A DNA stretch of 61,863 nt from Eubacteriales bacterium (GCA_045655865.1 JAZOQB010000035.1:1-61863); one strand, 5' to 3'. Positions 12,725 through 42,535 are shown, counted from the stretch's first letter. Numbers and translations: made by a program. The notes: generated by a model from the sequence alone, not told the origin.

Positions 12725-13246
12725 TTACTTAAAAAAGTCTGCCAGGCCAGCCAGCCTGGGGTCGATCTCCCGCTTTTCACATTCGCAGTCTCCGGCATTG
12801 ATGTCCTTTCCGCATTTGGGACAGAGCCCCCGGCAATCCTCGCGGCACAAAAGCCGCATGGGAAGCTCGGTGAGTATCGCCGTTTCGGCCACCTCCGCCA
12901 GATCGATTTTCTGTCCGTGAGCCACAATGACCTCTTCCTCGGAATCCGAGGGCGGCGCCAAGGTGGATGAGACGGGAAAATCTACCGGAACGGAAAAGCT
13001 TTCTTCGACCGGAGCAAGGCAACGCGCGCAGGGAGCGGAAAGTTTGGCGCTCACGGTGCCGGTAAGTCTTGGAAAGCCGGAGTGGTCTAATACCTGCCCG
13101 GAAAAGCCCAAAGAGGATACGGTGATGCCATTCTCCTGATAGGAAAGACCGGAGAGCGCCGAATCCAGGCAAAAAGAGACCTCTTGGACCTCTCCGGAAA
13201 AAAGCTTTGCAAGATCAAGGAATTTTGGGTTCATTTCATTCATCAT
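12725..13246 (-). CDS. DUF177 / YceD-family protein
   Basis: CARCL, LPMRLLC..DCRGLCP.CG.D.N.G.C.C, DPRLA.L; upstream of rpmF. Confidence 0.93.
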   Translation of the reverse strand: MMNEMNPKFLDLAKLFSGEVQEVSFCLDSALSGLSYQENGITVSSLGFSGQVLDHSGFPRLTGTVSAKLSAPCARCLAPVEESFSVPVDFPVSSTLAPPSDSEEEVIVAHGQKIDLAEVAETAILTELPMRLLCREDCRGLCPKCGKDINAGDCECEKREIDPRLAGLADFFK

Positions 13247-13278
13247 GTTTCGTTTCCTCTAGGTATCGACAGTGTTTT

Positions 13279-13307
13279 ATTATAACCGCAATTTATTTTT
13301 TTGTCAA
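13279..13307 (-). promoter_or_regulatory. sigma-A promoter of the yceD-rpmF operon
   Basis: Minus strand TTGACA-17bp-TATAAT. Confidence 0.75.
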
Positions 13308-13427
13308 TGGTCTTCTTGCATTTTGCGCATTATTTTGTCAATATTAATACGAAACGAGGATGCGGTCCCGGAATGACTGCGGCTTTGTGGCGCCAAGCTT
13401 TATTTATCCGGATTCAAAAATGGCGCT

Positions 13428-13943
13428 TTACAAGGTGATATCAATGGAGTAGGTGTTTTCAATGAGAATATATTCTATCCCCATTTTATCGCATCGCTCC
13501 TGTACCAGCGCGTTGTCCTTCAATACGTTCTCCAGGGTGCAGTCTTCATCGTTTCCTCGGTCTTCGATGACGTTGGCATAAGCTCGAATCCGGTGAAAAT
13601 GTTCTCGGATGTACCCTTGGCTCATCACCAGACAAAAAAATTGAATCTGGTCTAGGTATTTTTTTTCGAAATCCTTTTTCCATTCCGTCGGGATATAGCA
13701 TCCTTCTACAATGAGATTCTGTCCGTTTTCAATGGCTGTTTTGACGATTTCCCGAACGATGGGCCACAGATAAGATGTTAGCTCGTCATCACAACTTGTG
13801 GGTGTCAGTTTCGTGTTACCGCTGCGGATCAGACCCATTTTCAAGTGATCGATGGATAAATAAGGATAGTGATATCGTTCAAGAAGCTTTTGTGCCATCG
13901 CAGTTTTTCCGGTATGCGAAGCACCTGTGATCAAAACGACCAT
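13428..13943 (-). CDS. P-loop small-molecule kinase-like protein (adenylate/2-phosphoglycerate kinase-like)
   Basis: Walker A GASHTGKT, YLSIDHLKMGLIRSG, LIVEG. Confidence 0.78.
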   Translation of the reverse strand: MVVLITGASHTGKTAMAQKLLERYHYPYLSIDHLKMGLIRSGNTKLTPTSCDDELTSYLWPIVREIVKTAIENGQNLIVEGCYIPTEWKKDFEKKYLDQIQFFCLVMSQGYIREHFHRIRAYANVIEDRGNDEDCTLENVLKDNALVQERCDKMGIEYILIENTYSIDITL

Positions 13944-14297
13944 AGTTTTTCGGTTCCTTTTCTTTGCAGTTTGTTGTTAGATTTAGCTCCATTTTTAGCC
14001 CCGGACAATGCGATCTTATGGGGAAAAAGCGTATACCCGGTCGCCGGGGGTAAGAGCGTTACGATCTCTCAAATCGAGGCTTTTTTTATTTTATCAGTTT
14101 TTTTATCATCTTGCAAGGCATGTGGCCGGTTTTGTTCCGTTTTTCGTTAGCGTTTGAAGAGAATTTCTAAGGAGTGGATGATTTTTCGCATTTTTTCTGA
14201 AAAAGGATTGTTTTTTTGATTCATTCGTGTTATCATGAACATGTATGTGAAATGTTTTTTGTTTACCAATCTATTTGGAAGGACATTGAATTGAGTT

Positions 14298-15050
14298 ATG
14301 GAAAATAATCAGCAATTTCAGCAAGTTGTAAATGAAATTGATTTTGTCGCTCTGGCAAAGAAGCTTTGGAGCCGTCTTTGGCTTATTGTAATGGCTGTCA
14401 TCGTTGGCGCGGTGGCGGGCTTTACTTGCGGAAAACTTTCCACACCCACCTATCGCTCTCGTGCTTCCATTATGGTTAACAATACTTCATCCACAGATGC
14501 TTCCGGCGGTATTTCCACCGGTCAAATTGCTGTGGCGATGCACCTTGCACAGACCTATATTATTTTGGCGGAGAGTGATACCGTTTTGGCCGATGTGATC
14601 CACACCGGTGGATTTTCGTATACCGTTTCCCAGCTGAGGAGCAAGGTTTCCGCCGAGGCCATTGAAGAAACTGAAATTTTTGAGATTTACGTTACTGACA
14701 CCGACCCACTGCAATCTCAGGCGATTGCCAACGTTCTTGTGGATGTCCTTCCGCAGCGGGTTCAGGAAATTGCCAAGGGCAGTTCTCTTGAGGTGGTGGA
14801 CCGAGCGCAATTGGGTTCCCGGGTTAGCCCCGGTGCGACTCGCTTTGCTCTGGTTGGCGCGCTTTTGGGAGCGCTTCTCAGCATGGCCATGATCGTTTTG
14901 CTGGAACTGTTCAACAATACCATTTCCGATGAGGAATACCTCATTCAAACCTACAAGTTGCCGGTGTTGGCTTCCGTTCCCAGTTTTGACGAGGGCAAGT
15001 CAAACCGTCATTACGGGTATTACACAAGCAATTATCGTAACAAAAACTAA
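14298..15050 (+). CDS. Polysaccharide co-polymerase / tyrosine-kinase modulator (CpsC/Wzz-type)
   Basis: EIDF..L.K.LW..LWLI, TPTY.S.A, two TMs, PVLASVP; upstream of a BY-kinase. Confidence 0.9.
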   Translation: MENNQQFQQVVNEIDFVALAKKLWSRLWLIVMAVIVGAVAGFTCGKLSTPTYRSRASIMVNNTSSTDASGGISTGQIAVAMHLAQTYIILAESDTVLADVIHTGGFSYTVSQLRSKVSAEAIEETEIFEIYVTDTDPLQSQAIANVLVDVLPQRVQEIAKGSSLEVVDRAQLGSRVSPGATRFALVGALLGALLSMAMIVLLELFNNTISDEEYLIQTYKLPVLASVPSFDEGKSNRHYGYYTSNYRNKN

Positions 15051-15067
15051 CTACGGGGAAGAAGAGT

Positions 15068-15895
15068 ATGATGTCGTTATCGAGTCAAAAGAAGAGGGGA
15101 ACGAACCCGGAGAATCAAGTGGCCTGGGGTCCAAACTTGAGTTTTTCTGCCTCTGAGGCTTATAAGCGTCTGCGGACCTCTCTGGCTTTTTGCCTGCCAA
15201 AAAATGCCGAGCGGAATTGCCGGATCGTTGGGATCACAAGCGCTCTTGGAACAGAGGGGAAAAGTACTACGGCGCTCAATCTTGCTTATTCCATTGCAGA
15301 AAGTGGTCAATTGGTGCTTCTTATTGATGGGGATATGCGTTTGCCCCGTTTGGCTAAACGGCTCAAGCTTCAGGCTACTCCGGGATTGAGTGAGTGTCTG
15401 GCGGGAGAGATCAACGACGGGAATGCTGCCCTTCGTCAGATCAACGAGAATTTGTACGTTATGCCGGCCGGTAGCATCCCACCCAATCCGTCAGAACTTT
15501 TGCTATCTGCCAGAATGCGTCGGGTGACGGAGACGCTGGCTCAGAATTTCCATTATATCATTATCGATCTGCCTCCTGTAGGCGCCGTAGCGGATGCTTT
15601 GACCGTGGCGGAATTGGTGGATGGAATGATTATGGTGGTGCGGAAGAATTATTCGACCAAGCGTGCCCTTACTAGTGCGGTGCGAGAGCTGAACTTTGCC
15701 AATGCAAAGATTCTCGGCTTTGTGTTTAATGATGCCAGTGCTGATAGCAAAAAAGGCAAGAAAGGTTACAGAAGTTATAGCTACTACGGCCGGTATGCCA
15801 GTTCGAGTTATATGAAAAAACGTCCTTCTCCGAATAATCAAATTCATCAAGAGGGAACGAGTCAGGAAGATTTGTCGAAAACGATCTTGCCGTGA
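15068..15895 (+). CDS. Bacterial tyrosine kinase CpsD/CapB
   Basis: EAYKRLRT, Walker A EGKST, LLIDGDMR.P, PPNPSELL, IIIDLPP, C-terminal Tyr cluster. Confidence 0.93.
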   Translation: MMSLSSQKKRGTNPENQVAWGPNLSFSASEAYKRLRTSLAFCLPKNAERNCRIVGITSALGTEGKSTTALNLAYSIAESGQLVLLIDGDMRLPRLAKRLKLQATPGLSECLAGEINDGNAALRQINENLYVMPAGSIPPNPSELLLSARMRRVTETLAQNFHYIIIDLPPVGAVADALTVAELVDGMIMVVRKNYSTKRALTSAVRELNFANAKILGFVFNDASADSKKGKKGYRSYSYYGRYASSSYMKKRPSPNNQIHQEGTSQEDLSKTILP

Positions 15896-15955
15896 TCGGT
15901 TTTTGGTCGATATTCTTCAAAACAGAAAGTTTGTTTTCATTTCTTAGTTGAAAAA

Positions 15956-16028
15956 AGGGCGCCCGGAAATCCCGGACGCCCTATTTTTATATCAGAAAAG
16001 AGAGGCTTGCGAGCAAGCCTCTCTTTTT
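15956..16028. terminator. Two tandem terminator hairpins between convergent cpsD and the triple QueG-like gene
   Basis: AGGGCGCCCGG...CCGGACGCCCT and AAAAGAGAGGCTTGC-GA-GCAAGCCTCTCTTTT. Confidence 0.7.
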
Positions 16029-16042
16029 TAATTTATGTATGC

Positions 16043-18253
16043 TTATTTCTTTTTGGCAATGGGACAGTTTTGCAAGCAACGTTCAATGATAATATCAATA
16101 AAGTGAGGATTTCGATAGCAAAGCGTCTGGATCTTATCTTTGTTGCTCTGAATTTCCTTGATGGTTTCATCGTCAAGGGTTTCGGGAAGTTTTACGTCGG
16201 GCAACTTCCAACCCAACTGAGCAGAGCCGGCCCCTTCACACATTGCCAAAGATCTTGCCCAAGCACACTTGGTTTCATCGCGGGTAAATACGGGGTAGGA
16301 GATACCGTCTTTGATCGTAACGTTTTCAAGCTTGTCAAGCAAAGCCTGCATCGGGCAAGCCGTTGCACAAGCTTTGCATCCTTCGGGGCAAAGATTTTTT
16401 GTGTTTACTGCGGTGGGAGTGAGCTCGGCATCGGTTAACACGAAGGTAAAGCGCATTCTGGGACCGTATTTTTCATTTACGACCATTCCGCCTTTACCCA
16501 GTACGCCAAGTCCTGCAGCGACGGCAAACGGAGCGTTGGCACGAAGGTCGGGCATATGACGTCCGAATTTTCCGATGGTCGTGTGAGAATCGGGAGCAAG
16601 CTCAGCCAGCGGAATGGCTTGATACCCGCGGGCTACCAGGTTGCTGCAAAGGTCCACGCCGGCCCAGATGCTTTCCTTGTGTATTTCATAATGAGCATAC
16701 GCATAAGCGGAACCGTCTTCTGCTTCCTGAACGCCTGCAAGCTCTACAGCGCGTTCGGGAAGGGCCTCTGCCAAGCAGACGATAGATTTCATGCCGGGGA
16801 ACTGTTCTTTGATCTGCTCGATTCCGGGATAGGTAATATCGTCAAAGGTGCCAACGGTTACCATATCCATGTTTTTGAAAATATCAAGCTCGGGGGAAAG
16901 ATTGGGAACACACTCATCGTTCCATTCGCGCAAAACCAACGTCTGTGGTTTGAAAGGAATGTTACAGATAATAGCGGAAAGTGCAACGTATCTGCCTTCT
17001 TTTTCCCAGCCGGCATTGAGAGAAGCTTGTGCTGCAATACCGGTGGCTTTCCAATCCTGAATTGCCTCGTAACCCAGATCGTCAAGATAACGGGTGGCGT
17101 CAATGGCAAAACAAGAGCCCCGGTCATTCAATGCCGAAATCAGATGTTTTCTGTTTCTCGCATTCAACTCGTTTTCGGTTGTAAAGCTGTGGGTGTAACG
17201 GCCGATCGTAATTACGGTGGTGAAGGTCTCGAAAAATTGCTCGGTTCTGAAGCCTTCGTCAAAATTCTGCTTGTTGTTTACAAAATCGGAAAGGGGCTGA
17301 ATGGTGATGCGGTCGGCACCGGCATCCAAAGCCAATTTCTTGATTCTTTCAAGCATTTCTTCGTGGGATTTTTTCACGATCATCTTTTTGCGCAATGCAC
17401 CGGGGGTGTATTTGCGGTTGATGGAACGCTTTTTGGGAGTCATGCAATGCTTGAATGAACTGCACATGTAACCGTGGTTCTTCACTCTTTTACCGGTTTC
17501 AACTCCCTTATAAATCTTCTCTTCGTCCATATCATCGATATCGGCAAGAAGATCGGTGTCAAGATGGGCCTGTTCGCCCCAGAAGCAACGCCAACGGTTG
17601 ATGTTGGGGTAACGGAAATGTTTTCCTTCAATGGTGAAATCGAAAAATTTCGGGTCATTCAGGCGCTCTTCGCCGTAGTTTCTGCCTGCACAGTGTTTGG
17701 CACAAGCCATGCAGCCATCGCAGAGCGGGTCGCCGTTATAAAGCGGATCATATTCCAGCTCAGCCTCAGTAATAAACGAAATAATACGTTCACGGGGACC
17801 GTATTCGGGCGACATTACCATACCGTGATAGCCGTATTCGCCCAGACCTGCGGCAACGAATGCAGGCATATGATTCCAGGAAGCGGTGTGCTCGTAAGGA
17901 ATGTCTTTATAGGTCCTGTGTCTCCAATAGGTGGTACAGGGCTGCGGAATGGTGTTATAACCTTGTTCTTCAAGCCATTTGCACATGCGGAAGCACATGG
18001 CATCAAGCTTTGGAATCATACCGATCTGAAAAGCGGCAGGGAAGTTGGGGTTGGGCTCGCCGCACCAGTCAACCGAAGCATCAGGATGGTGAATGCCAAA
18101 GCACACGACCGATTTTGCTTCTGGCAAATGGGCTTGGGGTCTTAACATATGGGGCATGCCTTCAAAACGGGATACGGGAGCAATACCAACCATATCAGCT
18201 CCAAGATCAAGAGCCATTTTTTTAATTGCTTTTGTCAGTTCCTTCTTATTCAT
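16043..18253 (-). CDS. Triple-module QueG/reductive-dehalogenase-like (cobalamin/Fe-S) oxidoreductase, function unknown
   Basis: Modules begin ALDLGADMVGIA, ALDAGADRITIQ and DMVTVG; AAGLG...G.V..PE/KYGPR...TE/DAEL plus a ferredoxin-type Cys motif in modules 1 and 3; start MNKKE after RBS AAGGAG. Confidence 0.8.
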   Translation of the reverse strand: MNKKELTKAIKKMALDLGADMVGIAPVSRFEGMPHMLRPQAHLPEAKSVVCFGIHHPDASVDWCGEPNPNFPAAFQIGMIPKLDAMCFRMCKWLEEQGYNTIPQPCTTYWRHRTYKDIPYEHTASWNHMPAFVAAGLGEYGYHGMVMSPEYGPRERIISFITEAELEYDPLYNGDPLCDGCMACAKHCAGRNYGEERLNDPKFFDFTIEGKHFRYPNINRWRCFWGEQAHLDTDLLADIDDMDEEKIYKGVETGKRVKNHGYMCSSFKHCMTPKKRSINRKYTPGALRKKMIVKKSHEEMLERIKKLALDAGADRITIQPLSDFVNNKQNFDEGFRTEQFFETFTTVITIGRYTHSFTTENELNARNRKHLISALNDRGSCFAIDATRYLDDLGYEAIQDWKATGIAAQASLNAGWEKEGRYVALSAIICNIPFKPQTLVLREWNDECVPNLSPELDIFKNMDMVTVGTFDDITYPGIEQIKEQFPGMKSIVCLAEALPERAVELAGVQEAEDGSAYAYAHYEIHKESIWAGVDLCSNLVARGYQAIPLAELAPDSHTTIGKFGRHMPDLRANAPFAVAAGLGVLGKGGMVVNEKYGPRMRFTFVLTDAELTPTAVNTKNLCPEGCKACATACPMQALLDKLENVTIKDGISYPVFTRDETKCAWARSLAMCEGAGSAQLGWKLPDVKLPETLDDETIKEIQSNKDKIQTLCYRNPHFIDIIIERCLQNCPIAKKK

Positions 18254-18281
18254 TTCCTTTACTCCTTTCAGTACTGCTTTC

Positions 18282-18340
18282 ATTGTAATAAAATGCAGAA
18301 AAATTTTGTATGGGAAAATGAAATATTTATATGGACAAAT
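18282..18340 (-). promoter_or_regulatory. Putative AraC-activated promoter with 21-bp-phased direct repeats
   Basis: AAATTTTGTATGGGAAAAT (18301-18319) and AATATTTATATGGACAAAT (18322-18340); minus-strand -10 TACAAT at 18282-18287. Confidence 0.55.
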
Positions 18341-18377
18341 TCGCTCATTTCGTGTTATTCTTGATGGGGTGATAAAA

Positions 18378-19187
18378 ATGAATACTTTTCAGGATAACTA
18401 CTTTGATTTTAAAATTAAAAGCGACTTGAATTTGCACTATTGCGGAAACCGAGAAGCATCCATTGACCACAGATACAAACATAAGCAGGCTGCATATTTG
18501 CTGACGTTTGTTGTTTCCGGTGAAGCGGTTCTCACGGTAAGGAATAAAAAATACGATTTATCCACGGGTGATTTTTGCACGTTCTTTCCCCGATCCAATG
18601 CATCATATATTACCAAATCCGGTGTTCCGTGGAGCATCAGATGGGTGACGCTAACGGGGGATCAACTGCAGGAATTATTGCCAATGTTGGGCTTTACGCC
18701 TGAAAATCCTATTATCAAGGTAGCAGACCCTTCGGAAATTGAAAGAATACTCGAAAAACTGTTTGTTGTTACACCGAAAGACGATTTGAGAAGCAAAATA
18801 TCGGCGTTGTCTTTGATTTACCAGTTATTTTCACAGCTGGCTAAATCTTCGGTTTCACCGATCAAAAATGAAGTAGTCGCGGATGCAGCGGAATATATTT
18901 CCCGTCACTATAACCGGGAATTAACCGTGGAATCACTTGCTCAACGAGCTTTTCTGAATGCAAACTATTTTTCGAAATTATTTACAGCCAATGTTGGAAT
19001 TACACCGCAGCAATTGATTATCAGAACACGAATGGAAAAGGCGAAGGAATTGCTTTTATATTCTGAGCTTTCAGCCGGAGAGATCGCATCGGCGGTTGGT
19101 TTTTCGGATGCACTGTATTTCAGTCGCGCTTTCAAAAAGTACACCGGTACCTCTCCGTCGGAATTCCGCAAACAAAAAACAAGGTGA
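18378..19187 (+). CDS. AraC-family transcriptional regulator (cupin-like N-domain)
   Basis: C-terminal double HTH (YFSKLF...G.TP...R.EKAKELL...IA..VGF.D..YFSR.FKK.TG.SP.EFR); ATG at 18378. Confidence 0.93.
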   Translation: MNTFQDNYFDFKIKSDLNLHYCGNREASIDHRYKHKQAAYLLTFVVSGEAVLTVRNKKYDLSTGDFCTFFPRSNASYITKSGVPWSIRWVTLTGDQLQELLPMLGFTPENPIIKVADPSEIERILEKLFVVTPKDDLRSKISALSLIYQLFSQLAKSSVSPIKNEVVADAAEYISRHYNRELTVESLAQRAFLNANYFSKLFTANVGITPQQLIIRTRMEKAKELLLYSELSAGEIASAVGFSDALYFSRAFKKYTGTSPSEFRKQKTR

Positions 19188-19213
19188 TGCGAAAGCATCG
19201 CCTTGCTTTTTTT
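19177..19213 (+). terminator. Terminator after AraC gene
   Basis: CAAGGTGATGC-GAAA-GCATCGCCTTG followed by T7. Confidence 0.7.
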
Positions 19214-19309
19214 GTATCAAAATTTTTAAAGAAAGAATGATTTGAATTGAAAGCATATCCATGCCCTGAATTGCAAACACTAATTTTATTAAAAATCGGA
19301 GGAAATGTT

Positions 19310-20617
19310 ATGCAATCGGTTTGGGGAAAAAGCACGTCAAAGGTGCATTTTGATGCGCTTTATGGAAGTCGATGTGTGGACGTTTTGATCATCGGCGGCG
19401 GGATCGCGGGTGTTTTGTGCGCTTACAAGTTAAAAAATGCGGGCGTGGATTGTGCGCTGGTGGAAGCGGCGGAGATCTGTGGCGGTGTTACGGGGAACAC
19501 CACGGCAAAGATCACATTACAGCACGGAGCGATCTTTGACAAAATGATACAACGCTTTGGGGCGGATAAGACTCGGTGTTATGTGGACGCACAGATCAAA
19601 GCGTGTAAGGAATATGCGCGGCTTTGTAAGAATATCGACTGTGACTACGAAACGAGAGATTCTTACGTTTATTCTTTCAACCAGAGATGGAAAATCGAAA
19701 AGGAAGTTGCTGCCCTTGAACGAGTTGGCGTGAAAGCTGGGTTTTCCAATGCACGGGAGCTTCCGTTTGCTGTTGCGGGAGCGGTTTGTGTCAAGAATCA
19801 AGCCCAGTTTCACCCTTTAAAATTTCTATATAGCATCGCTCAGGATCTTCCCATCTATGAGCATACCAAGGTGGTGGAGCTGATGCCCCATAAGGCCGTT
19901 ACAAACCTAGGCGAGATCACTTATAAAAAACTGATCGTAGCAACACATTTTCCGATCCTCAACAAGCACGGCCTGTATCCGCTCAAGCTCTATCAACACC
20001 GCTCGTACGTTTTAGCGCTTAAGGGCGCTTTCAATGTGGCCGGAATGTACGTTGACCAGTCCGACACGGGATTATCCTTTCGTACCTATGGCGACCTTTT
20101 GCTTCTTGGCGGAGGAGGGCATCGAACGGGAAAACAGGGCGGATGTTGGCGGGAGCTGGAAGATTTTGCAAGAAAGCATTACAAAAATGCACAGATCGTC
20201 GCGAAATGGGCAACTCAGGACTGTATGACGCTGGATGACGTGCCATACATTGGGCAGTATTCAAAATCCACACCCGATATGTTCGTGGCAACCGGTTTTA
20301 ACAAATGGGGAATGACAAATGCCATGGTTGCAGCCGATATTCTTTGCGATCTGGTGCGGGAAAAGACCAATCCGTACGCATCGTTTTTTTCGCCTTCTCG
20401 CACCGTTTGGCGCCCACAGCTTTTGGCCAATGCCTTGGAATCAACGATAGGACTTCTCACGCCAACCAAGCCGCGATGTCCGCATTTGGGTTGTGCACTC
20501 AAATTCAATCGCGCAGAGCATACCTGGGATTGCCCTTGCCACGGATCACGTTTTACAGAGCGCGGAGAGCTTATTGATAATCCCGCAACAGACGATCATC
20601 GGTCAATAGGGAAATAA
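19310..20617 (+). CDS. FAD-dependent oxidoreductase with C-terminal Rieske domain (YhfW-like)
   Basis: DVLIIGGGIAG, TGNTTAKIT, ATGFNKWGMT, CPHLGC...WDCPCHGSRF; RBS GGAGG. Confidence 0.92.
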   Translation: MQSVWGKSTSKVHFDALYGSRCVDVLIIGGGIAGVLCAYKLKNAGVDCALVEAAEICGGVTGNTTAKITLQHGAIFDKMIQRFGADKTRCYVDAQIKACKEYARLCKNIDCDYETRDSYVYSFNQRWKIEKEVAALERVGVKAGFSNARELPFAVAGAVCVKNQAQFHPLKFLYSIAQDLPIYEHTKVVELMPHKAVTNLGEITYKKLIVATHFPILNKHGLYPLKLYQHRSYVLALKGAFNVAGMYVDQSDTGLSFRTYGDLLLLGGGGHRTGKQGGCWRELEDFARKHYKNAQIVAKWATQDCMTLDDVPYIGQYSKSTPDMFVATGFNKWGMTNAMVAADILCDLVREKTNPYASFFSPSRTVWRPQLLANALESTIGLLTPTKPRCPHLGCALKFNRAEHTWDCPCHGSRFTERGELIDNPATDDHRSIGK

Positions 20618-21030
20618 ATATTTCACCGACAAGCAAAAAAAAATCTTGTCGGTGGTTCATTTCATTTCTTGCTGTTAAAGTTTAGTTACTCAAGTAAAAC
20701 AAAAAATCCGAACGCTTCTCCAAGTAAGAGGATGTTCGGATTATTTTTATGTGGCGAGGTTTTTTTAATGGATTTGAGAAAGCCAAACCTTAAAACCCAC
20801 CATCAAACGTATATTCAAACCGTATGAAAGCGGCACATTGGTGTTTTCGAAAACAATGGTTTTCCAAATAGAAAAAATATCAAAAAAAAGAAATTTTTCA
20901 ACAAAAAACATTGAAATCATGCTATTTTATCATGTTTATATTGATATGTTTGAAAAAATATAATAAAATAATTTCACTGAATGCAAGATTTTTTGCATAA
21001 AAAACAAAATGATTCATAGGATGGGGAAAA

Positions 21031-21687
21031 ATGATTGGAGTGATACCATTGAATTTACAGCAGGTTGCATTCCGTTTGTGTTTGGCAGTAGTGATGGGAC
21101 TTTTGATCGGAATGGAGCGCGCAAAGCACGGCAGAGCTGCCGGAATGCGCACCCACGTCCTTGTTTGCCTCGGTGCGACGATCACCGCCATGACAGGTGT
21201 GTTTGCCCATTCGGTCTTTGGCGGCGGTGATGTTACAAGAATTTCGGCGCAGGTCATCAGTGGGGTTGGTTTTTTGGGCGCCGGAATGATCATTTTGAAA
21301 AATGATAATATGATTACCGGCCTCACAACGGCGGCCGGTGTATGGGCAACTGCAACCCTCGGAATCGCTGTGGGATACGGTTTTTACAGTGTTGCTGTGA
21401 TCGCCACCGCACTGTTTTTAATTACGCTGATGCTCTTTTCCAAGTTTGAGAGAAGAAAGAAAAACACCGAGGTGATTTATCTTGAAATCTCGGATATGAA
21501 AAGGCTCAATGCACTTATGGAAGAAATTCGCGAAAAAATTCCGAAAGAGCTGACCTTTCGTGTTCTTCCGCCGAAAAGCGGCATGACCGGACACATCGGT
21601 CTGGAGCTTGTCATGGATCGCAGAAAAGCGCCCGGTGTAGATGTATTTTTAGAGCTTGAAAGCGTTGTTTTTGCATTGGAGATCTAA
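21031..21687 (+). CDS. MgtC/SapB-family membrane protein
   Basis: IGMER....RAAGMRTH.LV, RISAQVISGVGFLGAG.I, GLTTAA.VW; start codon uncertain. Confidence 0.92.
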   Translation: MIGVIPLNLQQVAFRLCLAVVMGLLIGMERAKHGRAAGMRTHVLVCLGATITAMTGVFAHSVFGGGDVTRISAQVISGVGFLGAGMIILKNDNMITGLTTAAGVWATATLGIAVGYGFYSVAVIATALFLITLMLFSKFERRKKNTEVIYLEISDMKRLNALMEEIREKIPKELTFRVLPPKSGMTGHIGLELVMDRRKAPGVDVFLELESVVFALEI

Positions 21688-21919
21688 AAAACGAGGAAAG
21701 ATTGCAAAAAGAAAAATCCCGTTGAAACTTTTGTTTCAACGGGATTTTTATCATCTCGGTAGTTTCGCTGGATTCTACAAAACCTAAAGTGTCTTGATGC
21801 ATTTTTTGCAAAACTAAGTTGTTTTGGTGCAAAGCTGAAAAGTTTGGCGCATATTTGGCTTATGTTTGCATTTAGGGTGCGTTTTCATATTGCATCGGTC
21901 AGCTTTTGTTGTTTGTCTA

Positions 21920-21949
21920 TTGACTTTACCGTTTTTTTTGCGTTATAAT
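21920..21949 (+). promoter_or_regulatory. sigma-A-like promoter of the nucleotide-sugar operon
   Basis: TTGACT-18bp-TATAAT, about 275 nt upstream of the ATG. Confidence 0.6.
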
Positions 21950-22225
21950 AATTCAGAATAATGGGTTGGTGTAACTTGTTGCTCCGGAGTCATTACTGGA
22001 ACTTTTTTGAATCTTGCAACAATCTGGTTGAAAAAGAAAAAGTCCATGTTGCCGTGGCGTGGGTTGAAAAGAAACCGCACGATTTCGCGGTGCGATGCGT
22101 AACCCAAATTGTTTAATATCTTGGATGGTTTATACCTTGAAAAGAGGCTCGGGGATTGGGAGTCTGGGAAGATAAAAGTAACAGTTGATAAAATAAAAAT
22201 GGATACAAAAAGAGAGGGTTAAAAA

Positions 22226-23536
22226 ATGTCACTCTATGAAAAGATCCTAAACAAAAAAGAAACGATCTCACTTGTAGGACTAGGTTATGTTGGTATGCCT
22301 ATTGCGGTTGCTTTCGCAAGGAAAGTCAAGGTTATCGGTTATGATCTTAACGAAAAGAAAATTGAAGCTTACAAAGCCGGTATAGACCCCACCAACGAAG
22401 TTGGAGATGAAGTTATTAAGAATACGACTGTTGAATTCACCTTCGACGAAACCAGACTTCGCGATGCAAAATTCCATATTGTAGCTGTTCCGACTCCCGT
22501 ATATGACGATCATACTCCGGATTTGACTCCTGTCGAGGGGGCGAGCCGTATTCTTGGTAGAAATCTAACCAAGGGTTCTATTGTTGTTTATGAATCTACT
22601 GTTTATCCTGGAGTAACAGAGGATGTTTGTGTTCCGATACTTGAAAAAGAATCCGGATTGAAATGCGGAGTTGATTTCAAGGTGGGGTATTCTCCCGAGC
22701 GAATCAATCCCGGAGATAAAGTACATCGCCTTGAAACCATCGTGAAAATCGTTTCCGGTATGGATGATGAAACGCTTGACGAGATTGCCAAAGTTTATGA
22801 GCTTGTTGTTGATGCAGGGGTCCACAGAGCCTCTTGTATTAAAGTGGCAGAAGCGGCAAAAGTTATTGAGAATAGTCAGCGCGACATCAATATCGCTTTT
22901 ATGAACGAACTTTCGATTATTTTTAACAAGCTTGGAATTGATACAAAATCTGTGCTCGAAGCAGCCGGAACCAAATGGAATTTTTTGAAATTCTATCCCG
23001 GTCTTGTTGGCGGACATTGCATCGGTGTGGATCCCTACTATCTTACGTACAAAGCAGAGCAAGTCGGATATCATAGCCAAGTAATCCTTTCGGGTCGCCG
23101 TATTAATGATGATATGGGAAAATATATTGCTGAAAACGCAGTTAAGAACCTCATCAGGTCTGGCAAGGCTGTGAAAAATGCGAGAATTGCTATTTTGGGC
23201 TTTACATTTAAGGAAAATTGCCCTGATACAAGAAATACCAAGATTTTTGATATCGTAAAAGAACTCAGGGAATATGGAATTGAGCCGGTTATCGCAGACC
23301 CCACAGCGGACGCTGCCGAGGCTAAGCATCTCTACGGTGTTGAGTTTGTAGAGATTGATACCATTCAAAATATGGATGCCGTTGTGCTCGCTGTAGCGCA
23401 CGAAGAATTTGCACGTTTTACTATGGATAGGATGAACTCTTTCTTCGCGGAAGGACAAAAAGTTCTACTTGATATCAAGGGCTTGCTTAACAGGAAAGAA
23501 TACGAAAATGCAGGCTATTTATACTGGAGACTTTAA
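22226..23536 (+). CDS. UDP-N-acetylhexosamine 6-dehydrogenase (WbpO/TviB-like nucleotide sugar dehydrogenase)
   Basis: GLGYVG, ESTVYPG, SPERINPGD, AEAAKVIENSQRD, GGHCIGVDPYYL, GFTFKENCPD.RNTK. Confidence 0.95.
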   Translation: MSLYEKILNKKETISLVGLGYVGMPIAVAFARKVKVIGYDLNEKKIEAYKAGIDPTNEVGDEVIKNTTVEFTFDETRLRDAKFHIVAVPTPVYDDHTPDLTPVEGASRILGRNLTKGSIVVYESTVYPGVTEDVCVPILEKESGLKCGVDFKVGYSPERINPGDKVHRLETIVKIVSGMDDETLDEIAKVYELVVDAGVHRASCIKVAEAAKVIENSQRDINIAFMNELSIIFNKLGIDTKSVLEAAGTKWNFLKFYPGLVGGHCIGVDPYYLTYKAEQVGYHSQVILSGRRINDDMGKYIAENAVKNLIRSGKAVKNARIAILGFTFKENCPDTRNTKIFDIVKELREYGIEPVIADPTADAAEAKHLYGVEFVEIDTIQNMDAVVLAVAHEEFARFTMDRMNSFFAEGQKVLLDIKGLLNRKEYENAGYLYWRL

Positions 23537-23678
23537 TGTGTTAAGATTTCCCGAGAACGTTTTGTTCCTTGTTACGGGCGGCAGCGCAATACGGGAAATA
23601 TTTGACTATTATAAAAAGAGTAGTGCTGACGGAGTTGTTTTGTGGAAAAAGCCAGTCTTGGATCAAAGAAAATCATGA
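23536..23678 (+). pseudogene. Remnant of an NAD-dependent epimerase (WbpP/TviC-like)
   Basis: The TAATG-coupled ATG gives M-C-stop; a shifted frame reads RFPENVLFLVTGG then breaks off before the rest of the GxxGxxG motif. Confidence 0.6.
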
Positions 23679-23729
23679 AGCAATTTCTTCATTAGGTAAA
23701 TTAAAAGAAATTGCAGAGGAGAAAGAAAT

Positions 23730-24899
23730 ATGAAAATAGTTCATGTTTGTTTGGGATGCTTCTACGTTGAGCATATGTCATACCAAGAAAATATCTTGCC
23801 AAAATTTCATAAGCTTCAGGGACATGATGTGTCGATCATTGCTTCTCAGCATTCCTTTGATCATAACTACAGAAACAAACAGCGTGAAATCGGCCTCTTT
23901 ATAAACGAAGATGGTATTCCTGTTACTATCGTTGGTTATTCAAAATTTCCTTTTTGGGGGAGATTTCTCAGGTTTTACCCTGATCTATACAAGGAGCTCG
24001 AATCAAAGTCTCCGGATATCATTTTTGTACACGGTCCTCAGTTTTTTGGGAACACTCATTTAAATAAATACAAAAAACATCATCCTGCGGTTAGAATTAT
24101 CTGTGATAACCATTCTGACTATATCAATACTCCCATAAAACCCCTTAAATATTTTATTCTGAATAAGCTCCTTTGGCCTACTGCCGTGCGAAATGTGCGG
24201 AATACCGCGGATTTCTTTTGGGGCGTTACGCCTTTGAGAGTTCAATATTTACAAGAGATTTATAAGATACCCAAGAAAAAAACAGGGCTTTTAATTATGG
24301 GCGGAGACGATTCTTTGATTAACTTTAATCAAAAGAAGCAATATCGTTCAACCTTGTGCAGAGAATTGAAGATCAATGAGGATGATTTTATTATTGTTAC
24401 GGGAGGAAAAATAAATTTTGCTAAACGGACGGCAGAACTGGTGCAGGCCGTATTGAAATTAAATAACCCCAAGGTGCATTTGATCGTTTTTGGGGAATTT
24501 CCTCCTGAAATGAATGATGTGAAAAAAATGAGTGAAGAATCAACCAATATTCATACCGTCGGTTGGATAGATTCTTCCCGAGTATATTATTATTTTCTTG
24601 CTAGCGATCTCGGGTGTTTTCCAGGCACGCATTCTGTGCTTTGGGAACAAGCGGTCGCAAGCGGACTGCCGTGCATTTTTAGAAAATGGGAAGGAATGGA
24701 TCATGTTTTGGTTGACAATAATTGTGTGTTGATAGAAACATATGATGTTGATGACTTAAAGAAGCATTTAATGAGATTTGTAAATGATCCCGTATATTAC
24801 AGTGCGTTTAAAGAAGGTGCAGAACATTCGAAAGTAAATTTCTTATATTCAGAAATAGCAAAAAAAGCAATTGATATACCAGAGGTTTGCCTGGACTAG
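23730..24899 (+). CDS. Glycosyltransferase family 4 (GT-B)
   Basis: GHDVSIIAS, PDIIFVH, VTGGKI...KR, ASDLGCFP..HSVLWEQA.ASGLP; AT-rich. Confidence 0.88.
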   Translation: MKIVHVCLGCFYVEHMSYQENILPKFHKLQGHDVSIIASQHSFDHNYRNKQREIGLFINEDGIPVTIVGYSKFPFWGRFLRFYPDLYKELESKSPDIIFVHGPQFFGNTHLNKYKKHHPAVRIICDNHSDYINTPIKPLKYFILNKLLWPTAVRNVRNTADFFWGVTPLRVQYLQEIYKIPKKKTGLLIMGGDDSLINFNQKKQYRSTLCRELKINEDDFIIVTGGKINFAKRTAELVQAVLKLNNPKVHLIVFGEFPPEMNDVKKMSEESTNIHTVGWIDSSRVYYYFLASDLGCFPGTHSVLWEQAVASGLPCIFRKWEGMDHVLVDNNCVLIETYDVDDLKKHLMRFVNDPVYYSAFKEGAEHSKVNFLYSEIAKKAIDIPEVCLD

Positions 24900-25002
24900 A
24901 GAAAATGCAGGAGGTTCGCGCGGATAGTCAAACCTTCACTGATAAGAAAACTAAATATCAAAGTATAAAGTTAAACAGAAAGATGGAAAGTAAATTAACA
25001 GT

Positions 25003-26055
25003 ATGAGTATTTCGGTGTTTACAAACAAAACCCTTTTAATCACCGGCGGAACCGGGTCCTTCGGCAATGCCGTGCTCAATCGTTTCCTGCGCACGGATAT
25101 CGGCGAGATCAGGATTTTTTCGCGCGATGAGAAAAAGCAGGATGATATTCGACATGAATTTCAAGCGAAGATGCCTGAGGTGGCAGAAAAAATCAAATTC
25201 TATATCGGCGATGTACGCGACATCCAGTCGATTCGCAACGCTATGCATAGTGTAGACTACATATTTCACGCGGCAGCGCTTAAGCAAGTTCCTTCCTGTG
25301 AGTTCTTTCCGATTGAAGCTGTTAAGACCAACGTTCTCGGTACTGAAAACCTTCTGACTGCAGCTATCGAAGCAGGGGTTAAAAATATCGTTTGTCTTTC
25401 TACCGATAAAGCGGCATACCCTGTAAACGCAATGGGCATATCCAAAGCCATGATGGAAAAGGTTATCGTTGCAAAATCCCGTACAGTTGATCCTGCCAAG
25501 ACAAAGATCTGCTGCACTCGTTACGGTAACGTTATGTGCTCACGTGGTTCGGTCATTCCGCTTTGGATCGATCAGATCAAAGCAGGTAACCCCATCACCA
25601 TTACCGATGGATCCATGACTCGCTTCATTATGTCTCTTGATGAGGCGGTTGACCTCGTTCTGTTCGCATTTGAGCACGGAACAAACGGAGATATCCTTGT
25701 TCAAAAGGCTCCTGCCTGCACCATCCAGACTCAGGCTGAGGCTGTTTGTGAGCTCTTTGGCGGCGACAAGAACAACATCAAGGTTATCGGCATTCGTCAC
25801 GGTGAAAAGATGTACGAAACCCTCCTCACCAACGAAGAATGCGCAAACGCTATTGATATGGGCAATTTCTACCGTGTTCCCAGCGACAAACGCGGACTTA
25901 ACTACGATAAATATTTTAACCAGGGTGACGTTGAGCGCAATACTCTTACTGAATTTAACTCTCACAACACCCAGCTTATTAATGTAGAACAGACCAAAGA
26001 AAAGATCGCTTCTTTGGCATACATTCAGGAAGAACTTGCTAAAATGGGTAGATAA
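25003..26055 (+). CDS. UDP-GlcNAc 4,6-dehydratase/epimerase (FnlA/CapE/WbjB-like)
   Basis: TGGTGSFG, FSRDEKKQ, HAAALKQVPSCEFFP, STDKAAYPVNAMG.SKA, RYGNVM.SRGSV, GIRHGEK. Confidence 0.94.
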   Translation: MSISVFTNKTLLITGGTGSFGNAVLNRFLRTDIGEIRIFSRDEKKQDDIRHEFQAKMPEVAEKIKFYIGDVRDIQSIRNAMHSVDYIFHAAALKQVPSCEFFPIEAVKTNVLGTENLLTAAIEAGVKNIVCLSTDKAAYPVNAMGISKAMMEKVIVAKSRTVDPAKTKICCTRYGNVMCSRGSVIPLWIDQIKAGNPITITDGSMTRFIMSLDEAVDLVLFAFEHGTNGDILVQKAPACTIQTQAEAVCELFGGDKNNIKVIGIRHGEKMYETLLTNEECANAIDMGNFYRVPSDKRGLNYDKYFNQGDVERNTLTEFNSHNTQLINVEQTKEKIASLAYIQEELAKMGR

Positions 26056-40243: not shown

Positions 40244-42535
40244 ATGTATCAGTGCGAAAACCAGCAATATCGGTATGAAGTGCGTTTGATTGAAAAAGGC
40301 ATTGTTCGGGTGCGTATGGCACGCACCGGCGCCAATTATATTGAAACGCTGTTTTCTCGTTACCATGTAATCGAGGAAAAGGGCGACCTGAAAATGAAAA
40401 TGACCGATGAACCTGAGCGTTGCACTTTGACGGCGGACGATCTTTCCGTTGTCATTGACAAGGCCTCGGGCAAGGTTTGTCTTTCCGGGAAGACGGTATC
40501 TTTGACGGTCAAGATCTCCTGCAAAGAAGGCGGGCGTCAAGGAAACGAAGGATTTCGTCTGGAAATTCCCATGGATAAAGAAGAGCGCCTTTTCGGCCTG
40601 GGAGATGAATCCAGAAACCACATTGCTCGTCGGGGCACCAAATCCAGATTGGATATGTCCAATATTGCATCCTACGGCCCCATTCCTTATCTTATGAGTA
40701 CGGGTGGCTGGGGAATCCTGGTCAATTCCACTTATGCGCAAGACTATGATTTGGGCGCCACGGATCCCGATCAGATCGTAATGGACATACCGGAAGGCAG
40801 TGCGGATTTCTATGTTTTCTTGCCGGAAAACGGAAAGCTGCCGGATATTATTCGCATGTACGCTAGCATTTCCGGTTTTCCCATCATGATGCCAAAATCT
40901 TTCTACGGCGTTACCTATATCATGAACGAAAGAAGCAATGCTCGGTATCTGTTGGATGACTGCTTGCGCTTCCGGGAACGTGATATTCCCTTGGATATGG
41001 TGAGCCTGGAGCCTAACTGGATGACCAAGTCTTACGATTACAGCACTGAAAAGGCTTGGGATCCCGAACGCTTTTTCATTCCTACCTGGGAACCGGTCAA
41101 CACCAGCAGCAAAGACACCTTTTTCTATCCTTTGCGCCAAATGGGATTCAAGCTCAGTCTTTGGCTTTGCATGAATTACGATCTGTTCTGGGAAGAGGAA
41201 AGAAAGATCGGTCAGCCTACCGAGCCTACTAATATCATCTATCCTTTTGGGGAAGATGCAATGATCAAGGATCCTCGCCTTGTCAATGCCAAATACGTGG
41301 ATAAGATCACCAAGCGTGACGAGGCTTGGTTCGAGCATTTGAAGAAATTTGTGGACAACGGCGTATCTGCCTTCAAATTGGATGCTTCCGCTCAAGTCCG
41401 TCACCATCCTGACAGACTCTGGGCGTGCAAGTTTACGGATAAAGAGGCCCACAACATTTATCCTGTCCTTTACGTTCGACAAATGCAAGAGGGCTTTACG
41501 GAACACACCAATGGCCGCCGTGCGATTATTTTCACGCCTTGCTTGAGCGTGGGTACGCAGAAGCACGCTGCCAGCTGGTCAGGAGATACGGGCGGAGGAC
41601 CCAAAACGCTGGTTTCCATGCTCAATTTCGGTCTTTGCGGTCATAGCAATGTGGCCTGCGACATGGAAGATTCTCCTGCATCCATGCACTATGGTTTCCT
41701 TTCTCCTTGGTCGAAGTATTTTGGCTGGGATAACTGGAAACAGCCCTGGTATCTGGGTCAAGAAAAGGAGCAGCTATTCCGCAGATATGCAAAGCTTCGT
41801 AGCTCTCTGTTTCCGTACATCTATTCTATGTCTCACTACGCTGCCCAGACGGCTATGCCCGTGGCAAGAGCTTTGTGCCTGATGGATCAGGACAATCCTG
41901 CTTACGATGAAATCAAAAACGAATATTGGTTTGGCGACAAATTCCTGGTGGGAGCATTTGATATGCACCTGACCCTTCCCAGCGGTCGCTTTTACGATTA
42001 CTTTACCGGCGAAATCATCGAAGGCGGAAGAGAGATCGACTACCGTATTCCCGAAAACTGGGGCGGAGCGCTCTTTGTAAAAGAAGGGGCTATCTTTGTT
42101 ACCATGGAGCCCAGAAAGTATGTGGAAGAAAAAGTCTCCAATCACTATGATATCAACATTTACCACGGTAAAGATGACTCTTTTGTGATGGTGGATGACG
42201 ATGGCTACACCTATGATTACAAGTCGGGAGCTATGACGTGCACGCCTATGTCCATTGAGAACAGCAACGACAGTGGTTTTGACGTGGTTCTGGGGCGTCG
42301 CCAGGGTGAATTCTTTGGCCGTGAGCGCCGTCCTGACGCCATGCCCTCCGAGCCTGAGATTCCCGGAATGCCTTCGATGGAAGCCTTCCGTGTGGTGTTC
42401 CACACCTGCAAGCCCGCACAGGTTACCCTGGACGGAGAAGCCATCGCCCTCAAGGAAGAGGACGGTAAGACCGTGTTCGAAATCTCTGCGGAACTCCACG
42501 AGAAAAAAGACCTGCGCTTTGCAGTTCAACTGTAA
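40244..42535 (+). CDS. Glycoside hydrolase family 31 (alpha-glucosidase/xylosidase-like)
   Basis: FGLG, PYLMS..GWG, FRE.DIP.D, nucleophile FKLD, HN.YP..Y, acid/base WSGD, LR..L.PYIYS. Confidence 0.9.
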   Translation: MYQCENQQYRYEVRLIEKGIVRVRMARTGANYIETLFSRYHVIEEKGDLKMKMTDEPERCTLTADDLSVVIDKASGKVCLSGKTVSLTVKISCKEGGRQGNEGFRLEIPMDKEERLFGLGDESRNHIARRGTKSRLDMSNIASYGPIPYLMSTGGWGILVNSTYAQDYDLGATDPDQIVMDIPEGSADFYVFLPENGKLPDIIRMYASISGFPIMMPKSFYGVTYIMNERSNARYLLDDCLRFRERDIPLDMVSLEPNWMTKSYDYSTEKAWDPERFFIPTWEPVNTSSKDTFFYPLRQMGFKLSLWLCMNYDLFWEEERKIGQPTEPTNIIYPFGEDAMIKDPRLVNAKYVDKITKRDEAWFEHLKKFVDNGVSAFKLDASAQVRHHPDRLWACKFTDKEAHNIYPVLYVRQMQEGFTEHTNGRRAIIFTPCLSVGTQKHAASWSGDTGGGPKTLVSMLNFGLCGHSNVACDMEDSPASMHYGFLSPWSKYFGWDNWKQPWYLGQEKEQLFRRYAKLRSSLFPYIYSMSHYAAQTAMPVARALCLMDQDNPAYDEIKNEYWFGDKFLVGAFDMHLTLPSGRFYDYFTGEIIEGGREIDYRIPENWGGALFVKEGAIFVTMEPRKYVEEKVSNHYDINIYHGKDDSFVMVDDDGYTYDYKSGAMTCTPMSIENSNDSGFDVVLGRRQGEFFGRERRPDAMPSEPEIPGMPSMEAFRVVFHTCKPAQVTLDGEAIALKEEDGKTVFEISAELHEKKDLRFAVQL

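Follow-up and report, generated by a model that had tools for sequence, protein, structure and literature searches.

A three-module class III cobalamin/Fe-S protein with two differently conserved pockets in one chain is a candidate inducible reductase

In a 61,863-nucleotide stretch of DNA from an Eubacteriales bacterium (GCA_045655865.1 JAZOQB010000035.1:1-61863; this whole stretch is referred to as the window), one gene on the minus strand encodes a protein, P0001, that is composed of three tandem modules related to class III cobalamin (B12)/Fe-S enzymes. To our knowledge, only two chemistries are known for this class, dehalogenation and tRNA epoxide reduction. The first and third modules are full and carry differently conserved pockets, the middle module retains only the core fold, and the gene is linked to an AraC-family regulator. 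In the reading that we prefer, for which confidence and doubt are evenly balanced, the protein is a cytoplasmic B12/Fe-S reductase whose synthesis can be induced; it would have two dissimilar sites and would cleave, by means of Co(I), a C–O or other C–X bond in a glycan-derived compound. The gene and its parts are the following.

16043..18253, minus strand: three-module class III cobalamin/Fe-S gene, 736 amino acids (aa; P0001), stop codon counted, identified from its open reading frame and full-length homologues
17384..18253, minus strand: module 1 (aa 1–290), the best conserved of the three, with full B12-binding core and ferredoxin and the polar residues H55, D58, C106, W110-R113, H128 and E227
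17444..17722, minus strand: Fe-S region of module 1, with C178, C181, C184, C188, C223, C264 (C266 in relatives) and C270
16925..17377, minus strand: module 2 (aa 293–443), core fold without GLG hairpin or cysteine motif, the least conserved module
16046..16891, minus strand: module 3 (aa 455–736), full B12-binding core and ferredoxin, with Y517/Y522 and E551 kept
16064..16390, minus strand: Fe-S region of module 3, with C622, C626, C629, C633, C663, C726 and C730

The three modules claimed for this chain by the original prediction were recovered by profile comparison, in an AlphaFold2 (AF2) model and in structure matches. In profile-profile comparisons, modules 1 and 3 matched at 99.8% (E 2e-29) and modules 1 and 2 at 97.3% (E 2e-11, 137 columns), and the direct match of modules 2 and 3 was weak (31.8%, E 5e-4). 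The AF2 model (predicted local distance difference test score, pLDDT, 94.3; predicted template modeling score, pTM, 0.94) contains the same order of helices and strands three times, with module 2 lacking the GLG hairpin and the ferredoxin and module 3 lacking the first helix. The class III arrangement, a nitroreductase-like B12-binding core followed by a two-cluster ferredoxin, is found in modules 1 and 3; module 2 has the core only, in line with the degenerate middle module that had been proposed. The whole model superimposes on QueG, PceA and NpRdhA with Z 16–18 over ∼210–250 residues (for QueG, Z 17.7, root-mean-square deviation (rmsd) 4.2 Å, 234 residues aligned; for PceA, Z 17.5, rmsd 3.2 Å, 236 aligned), and the module 3 profile matches PceA (E 1.6e-19) and QueG (E 2e-13). 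When module 2 was folded alone, its top match among 48,161 chains was NpRdhA (Z 10.2, rmsd 3.4 Å, 142 aligned), with PceA and a nitroreductase next (Z 8.6 each) and then QueG (Z 8.5); its top Foldseek match was PceA. Pfam returned weak ferredoxin matches only.

Full-length homologues span both module junctions, which rules out a chimera or an assembly artefact. Among 7,997 candidates scored, 173 proteins (404–1288 aa) matched, and 120 of these, less four partial ones, gave an alignment of 116 homologues. A second set of 43 full-length representatives, taken from the best 150 matches in a 50%-identity library, is 26–48% identical to the query and has the same two full modules with a diverged middle. 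Mean column conservation is 0.77/0.68 for module 1 versus 0.58/0.59 for module 3 in one alignment, and 0.60/0.52 versus 0.50/0.45 in the 43 representatives, in which module 2 keeps one position at ≥80%. Module 2 is likely a structural element without a cofactor. There is a precedent for it, because catabolic reductive dehalogenases (RdhA) carry a vestigial B12 domain that imitates the dimer partner (PMC10463259). Neither the RRxFL motif of twin-arginine translocation (Tat) signals nor a membrane-like window was detected in any of the 159 aligned rows (116 and 43, three of them shared), and no rdhB is present among the window neighbors. Judged from its sequence, the protein is therefore cytoplasmic, as had been anticipated.

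Both full modules contain the expected cluster motifs, but the original prediction missed that the B12-proximal cluster lacks one Cys: each full module of this subfamily has seven invariant Fe-S cysteines, not the eight of class III enzymes. These 14 positions are 97–100% kept in the 43 representatives, and the glycines and arginines of the B12-binding hairpin, together with the 7 + 7 Cys, are kept across the 116 close homologues. In QueG, the B12-adjacent cluster is ligated by Cys198, 214, 240 and 243 (PMC5175355). The equivalent of Cys240 is absent from modules 1 and 3, and the eight positions that precede the middle Cys are free of Cys in 110 of 116 module 1 and 115 of 116 module 3 sequences. 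The loss is not universal, since 15 of the 43 divergent module 3 sequences do have a Cys, five positions ahead of the middle one. E227 and E724 are present in all 116 homologues and D720 in 107. Given the missing Cys and these acidic residues, the B12-proximal cluster is likely either a [4Fe-4S] cluster with three Cys and one Glu/Asp ligand or a [3Fe-4S] cluster; D720 and E724 are candidates for the fourth ligand in module 3, where C712 (85 of 116) may be a remote cluster ligand.

The pockets were compared through the position that is shared by QueG Asp130 and PceA Asn272 (PMC4646009). At the QueG Asp130/134 position, placed by spacing from the preceding Gly, module 1 has Cys106 (96%) and module 3 has Asp/Glu551 (94%; n = 116 for both), which is E551 in P0001 and mostly Asp in the homologues. 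C106, which would face the cobalt, is Ala, Ser or Cys in divergent members. In module 3, Y517 (93%), D551 (88%), W665, E724, the cluster motifs and the hairpin are kept across the 43 representatives. Because the residues at the QueG Asp130 and Tyr positions differ between modules 1 and 3 and yet are kept, the pockets appear to be different and each conserved. The idea of two divergent full modules stands to that extent, the alignments pointing to two differently conserved pockets and not to two activities.

Modules 1 and 3 are predicted to pair through their central helices, like the PceA dimer. When they were folded as two chains, the pairing score was 0.87 (best control, 0.00), contact agreement between runs was at least 94% and partner pLDDT was at least 91; in the calibration, the pass mark separated solved pairs (116 of 157 at or above it) from mismatched pairs (2 of 215). 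The predicted interface is formed by helix 81–95 with helix 516–527 and by loop 35–44 with residues 505–512, and we infer that it corresponds to the PceA dimer mode. In a covariation analysis of 265 sequences, 7 of the 16 module 1–3 pairs among the top 40 inter-module pairs fell within this interface (∼8% expected), a weak signal given an effective sequence number of ∼141 and phylogenetic noise, and one that is not independent of the pairing prediction because the alignments overlap.

In phylogenetic trees, all module 1 sequences form one clade and all module 3 sequences another. The internal triplication that had been proposed fits the best tree, in which modules 1 and 3 are held together (approximately unbiased test, p-AU 0.58), but the placement of module 3 with paralogues from multi-gene cassettes is not rejected (p-AU 0.37). 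Rooting of the FastTree tree on QueG gave a long branch and was distrusted. An origin by internal duplication is thus favored, though not shown. The cassette genes form a separate clade (Shimodaira–Hasegawa-like approximate likelihood ratio test, 99), so the three-module protein is not simply a fusion of such genes and that origin is not favored. Other layouts were also noted. One locus (L059:9989-12218) divides the layout between two adjacent open reading frames, one of 452 aa with modules 1 and 2 and one of 276 aa with module 3, through either a natural split or a frameshift; split forms are rare (P0270 and P0271 are module-3-sized proteins). P0190 and P0242 (470 and 678 aa) contain two class III modules in another arrangement, and at L174 an IclR-like gene is followed by a tandem pair of three-module genes (778 and 777 aa).

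The regulatory features around the gene are the following.

18262..18266, minus strand: AGGAG, ribosome-binding-site-like, read from sequence, preceding the ATG at 18253
18282..18287, minus strand: −10-like hexamer TACAAT, kept 5′ of close homologues in an alignment of 18 upstream regions
18330..18345, minus strand: conserved operator-like motif, likely an AraC site, with a second copy 5′ of GH31 and EamA genes on contig C50
18378..19187, plus strand: divergent AraC-family regulator gene, co-inherited with the three-module gene
15994..16029, no strand assigned: 16-bp hairpin, 13 bases beyond the stop codon

The reading frame (16043–18283, minus strand) is open over 746 codons. Its second ATG, at 18253, is the likely start, because it is preceded by AGGAG, the first ATG overlaps the conserved −10-like hexamer, and close homologues start there. 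With this 736-aa start, residue numbers are 10 lower than in the original prediction, whose quoted motifs are all present in the shorter protein. The hexamer was missed by a strict promoter scan. The hairpin was called terminator-like on the plus strand, and T-tails were read on both strands. Since it follows the three-module gene, this gene is likely monocistronic; it stands alone between the divergent AraC gene and the strong hairpin, with a convergent kinase gene beyond the terminator.

The 16-base motif is conserved 5′ of close homologues and is likely the binding site of the AraC protein. A matrix derived from 16 sites, all in other genomes, scored 15.0 5′ of the GH31/EamA genes and 14.4 5′ of the three-module gene in this genome; a third site scored 11.4 and all others ≤2.3. 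The third site (G000:C11:55950-55985) lies between homoserine-dehydrogenase-like and threonine-synthase-like genes (names read from sequence) and is probably a chance match. Of 61 related genomes, five contain the motif without mismatch, and each of these carries the three-module gene; the one extra site among them (G015) precedes an orthologous GH31 gene (59% identity). Of 22 further gene-carrying genomes, some of them duplicates of one another or of genomes already counted, 20 have the motif, with extra sites 5′ of sugar-binding-protein genes in three and of a flavin adenine dinucleotide (FAD) oxidoreductase gene in one. At two loci (L275 and L277), the sugar-binding-protein gene with the motif upstream is followed by ATP-binding cassette (ABC) permease genes and GH77; at a third (L252), a sugar-binding-protein gene has the same motif, and all three loci have a paralogous AraC. 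The regulator links, the best clue, suggest glycans. The GH31 gene itself (G000:C50:29573-32787; L236) has an unusual nucleophile region (AEDA) and is followed by the EamA transporter gene; a paralogue, 34% identical, lies at 40244-42532 of the window.

These observations can be assembled into a mechanism in which the cofactors, electron donor, substrate and chemistry are taken over from what is known of the family or from gene context. Modules 1 and 3 would form an internal asymmetric PceA-like dimer, with module 2 as a structural, cofactor-less part. Each full module would hold a base-off corrinoid, and Co(I) would be generated with electrons that its two Fe-S clusters take over from ferredoxin or flavodoxin; the Co(I) would then attack carbon so that a C–O (or other C–X) bond is cleaved reductively. 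In module 3, a putative QueG-like Tyr/Asp acid pair could protonate an oxygen leaving group, and the other polar pocket of module 1 (His, Asp, Cys, Trp-Arg) could serve a second step or a second substrate. The neighboring AraC protein would switch the gene on, and the substrate would be a carbohydrate-derived small molecule. In keeping with a B12-dependent protein, the host encodes a MetH-like B12 enzyme and has a cobalamin riboswitch. More tentatively, and in our estimate rather less probably, the protein would add a fourth kind to the class III B12 enzymes: one chain would hold two cobalamins at two different active sites, the proximal clusters would have carboxylate ligands, and the reaction would be a reductive C–O cleavage of a new type (deoxygenation, or opening of an ether or ring) during the anaerobic breakdown of sugars. 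Cleavage of an anhydro-sugar ether, suggested by GH31 and Gfo/Idh/MocA genes and supposing a lyase role for the GH31 enzyme, is speculation; a literature search for it found no papers.

Several points weigh against the preferred reading. No catabolic gene is constant near the homologues; among 100 distinct homologues at 174 loci, the commonest are a Gfo/Idh/MocA oxidoreductase gene (16) and one for an FAD oxidoreductase (8). Glycan genes are abundant in these hosts, and their presence near the homologues has no background control. The maltodextrin operons have their own paralogous AraC proteins (38–43% identity), so the presence of one motif at both is no proof of a common inducer, and no orthologue of the GH31 gene was found in the 22 other gene-carrying genomes, three of which have 35–36% identical paralogues. 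The Tyr that is shared by QueG and RdhA corresponds to Ile80 in module 1, and in module 3 Tyr522 (93%) is one helical turn off, in weak profile alignments. There is no motif by which B12 binding can be diagnosed in class III enzymes (PMC4646009). Finally, the module 1–3 pairing job differed from the calibration in having its own alignment and ligands along, and its passing score may be a memory of PceA dimers.

The main alternative, which we consider unlikely but a serious contender, is that only one full module is catalytic, the other being an electron relay or a pocket-completing scaffold, and that a single reduction is carried out. The higher conservation of module 1 would fit this, as would the predicted interface, in which residues 509–520 and 707–713 of module 3 meet the conserved 108–116 loop of module 1; the partner domain of catabolic RdhA did become purely structural (PMC10463259). 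However, module 3 keeps its cluster motifs, hairpin, Y517, D551, W665 and E724 in the 43 representatives, in which the vestigial module 2 keeps one position.

There is a small chance that natural organohalides are the substrates and that the protein is a catabolic reductive dehalogenase of the cytosol. Its top family match is TIGR02486 (RdhA), its top solved-structure match by sequence is PceA, and cytosolic RdhA-like proteins of 300–1000 aa are on record (PMC12219181). However, the TIGR02486 score (80.6 bits, from two stretches) is half the cut-off of 160.35 bits, the RdhA Tyr is apparently out of register, no aromatic-degradation or fused-reductase context was seen among the neighbors scanned, and the regulator links point to glycans. 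Compared with PceA (4uqu, 8q4h), the core fold and ferredoxin are alike (Z 17.5), but the three-module protein lacks a Tat signal and RdhB, apparently does not have Tyr246 in register, and combines two different sites in one chain. Catabolic RdhA (NpRdhA and BhbA; 4ras, 6zxu) are closer in layout. They are soluble, of ∼700 aa, carry in their chain a second, cofactor-less copy of the B12 core, and provide the top whole-chain Foldseek match (E 1.5e-11) in addition to the top match of module 2. Nevertheless, they have one B12 site and one ferredoxin, whereas the three-module protein has two full modules that are predicted to be mutual partners, seven Cys per module and no fused reductase domain, and global superposition fails (rmsd ∼24 Å). 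Because the cofactor-less duplicate was already known from catabolic RdhA (PMC10463259), what is new in the layout is the second intact module, and the novelty that had been claimed holds for that part alone. In the passages covered of an architecture survey of RdhA-like proteins, including its section 9, no form with two intact modules is described (PMC12219181).

Of comparably low probability is a role in corrinoid or methyl handling, either as a CblC/CblD-like protein for cobamide processing or reactivation or in sugar O-demethylation with URO-D/MT2-like proteins. The B12 chaperones CblC (MMACHC) and CblD share the nitroreductase-like B12 fold (Z 7–10) but have no ferredoxin domain. C106 facing the cobalt would suit such a role, and URO-D-like genes occur near 4 of 100 homologues and at L029 and L059. 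However, C106 varies in divergent members, and no cobalamin riboswitch was found near the gene, Rfam giving no matches at 13000–23000 of the window; the sole match in the host genome is on contig C7. Substrate diversification fits better than corrinoid handling because many paralogues occur per genome (a 9.3-Mb genome, G061, has 20 profile matches, three of them at three-module length). CbiR, a TIM-barrel hydrolase (PMC7733943), was ruled out as a relative.

It is quite improbable that the protein is a corrinoid-free Fe-S enzyme in which the open iron of a 3-Cys cluster binds the substrate for dehydratase- or IspG/IspH-like chemistry. In modules 1 and 3 alike, the Cys that is missing belongs to the ligands of the cluster next to the pocket, but the B12-binding hairpin is fully kept, E227, E724 and D720 could fill the fourth site, and a nearby Cys is present in the 15 divergent module 3 sequences mentioned above.

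An RNA-modifying QueG paralogue, acting on tRNA or on some other RNA, is highly improbable, in line with the substrate other than tRNA that the original prediction suggested, although the Joint Genome Institute (JGI) labels several homologues 'epoxyqueuosine reductase' and QueG (5d08, 5d6s) is the top structural match, tied with PceA, with an acid apparently at the catalytic Asp position in module 3: the DYH motif, a QueG hallmark (PMC4646009), is absent from P0001 and from the consensus, no PF08331 (DUF1730) match was found at E 0.1, TIGR00276 reached 50.8 of 200 bits in two stretches, the RNA-binding repeat domain and the Cys240 equivalent are lacking, Arg141 is replaced by Met or Ala, the gene is patchy (7 of 60 relatives) and AraC-linked, and besides tgt and queA the host possesses another gene, QueG-like, whose product contains DYH, DUF1730 and eight Cys. 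That gene (G000:C38:46439-47251; L104:1315-2127) encodes 271 aa, apparently without the C-terminal repeat domain, and scores 128 of 200 bits for TIGR00276.

The homologues come from Clostridia, Lentisphaerae, Planctomycetes, Spirochaetes and Verrucomicrobia. Their distribution is patchy, with a close copy in 6 of 60 related genomes, a distant copy in one more, and a match of the three-module type in 5 of 299 other genomes of the class, for which only three candidates were scored per genome. A divergent AraC gene is adjacent in 43 of the 92 distinct homologues with an upstream gene, and a co-directional IclR-type gene in 13. Another class III gene is present at the locus for 24 of the 100 homologues in the neighbor counts and a U32-like gene for 8; varied glycosidases, sulfatases, sugar ABC components and URO-D-like and glycyl-radical genes make up other neighbors. 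In several environmental operons, an IclR gene and the three-module gene are followed by two or three single-module class III genes. Nine loci (L146, L137, L140, L131, L139, L144, L145, L168 and L176) combine the three-module gene with one to three single-module genes, several being led by an IclR-type gene and some having a U32-like gene in between, with up to six class III modules in total (L146). Such multi-gene QueG/RdhA-like cassettes (L107, L121, L131 and L146, with or without the U32-like gene) resemble the three-module gene in belonging to the orphan branch, in their hosts and often in sharing an operon, but are a separate clade, and this genome has the three-module gene without cassette genes. 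An unannotated family of ∼330–390 aa (L034:7954-9126, L050:7897-9000, L111:2337-3383, L121:10175-11149 and L122:1645-2676), with weak U32 similarity (best Pfam E 2e-4; 20% U32 in its ESM Atlas cluster), adjoins a 340-aa single-module class III gene; several of these 340-aa proteins have Glu where relatives have a cluster Cys.

In the window, the reductase region is bordered by genes for Wzz-like and tyrosine-kinase-like proteins and by a nucleotide-sugar cluster (14298-15895 and 22226-26055), and the guanine-cytosine content of ∼18–28 kb is 0.40–0.43, lower than in the rest (0.47–0.51). In most other genomes, the AraC–reductase pair has other neighbors. The three-module gene had no match among 72,556 plasmid records, and in a search of sequencing runs no RNA run was listed for it and two DNA runs had short pieces only.

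No characterized counterpart and no description of the three-module architecture were found in the literature searched, most subscription papers and supplements being outside that search, and no link to a mycotoxin de-epoxidase was found in a listing of papers. The authors of the QueG structure considered further class III families probable but not recognizable by motif (PMC4646009). The three-module family is a concrete candidate for one of them, being widespread, diversified and misnamed 'epoxyqueuosine reductase' in databases. The protein is probably soluble, its gene is probably monocistronic, the regulator is known and an operator is predicted, so that a reporter could be used to screen for the inducer. 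On the more tentative reading of a fourth kind of class III enzyme, the protein would stand at the head of a large branch of orphan B12 enzymes, with as many as 20 matches in one genome, among glycan degraders of gut, rumen and sediment. Should both sites work, one class III chain would contain two different B12 centers, an arrangement of which we found no description, and carbohydrate-fermenting anaerobes would have an unrecognized demand for B12.

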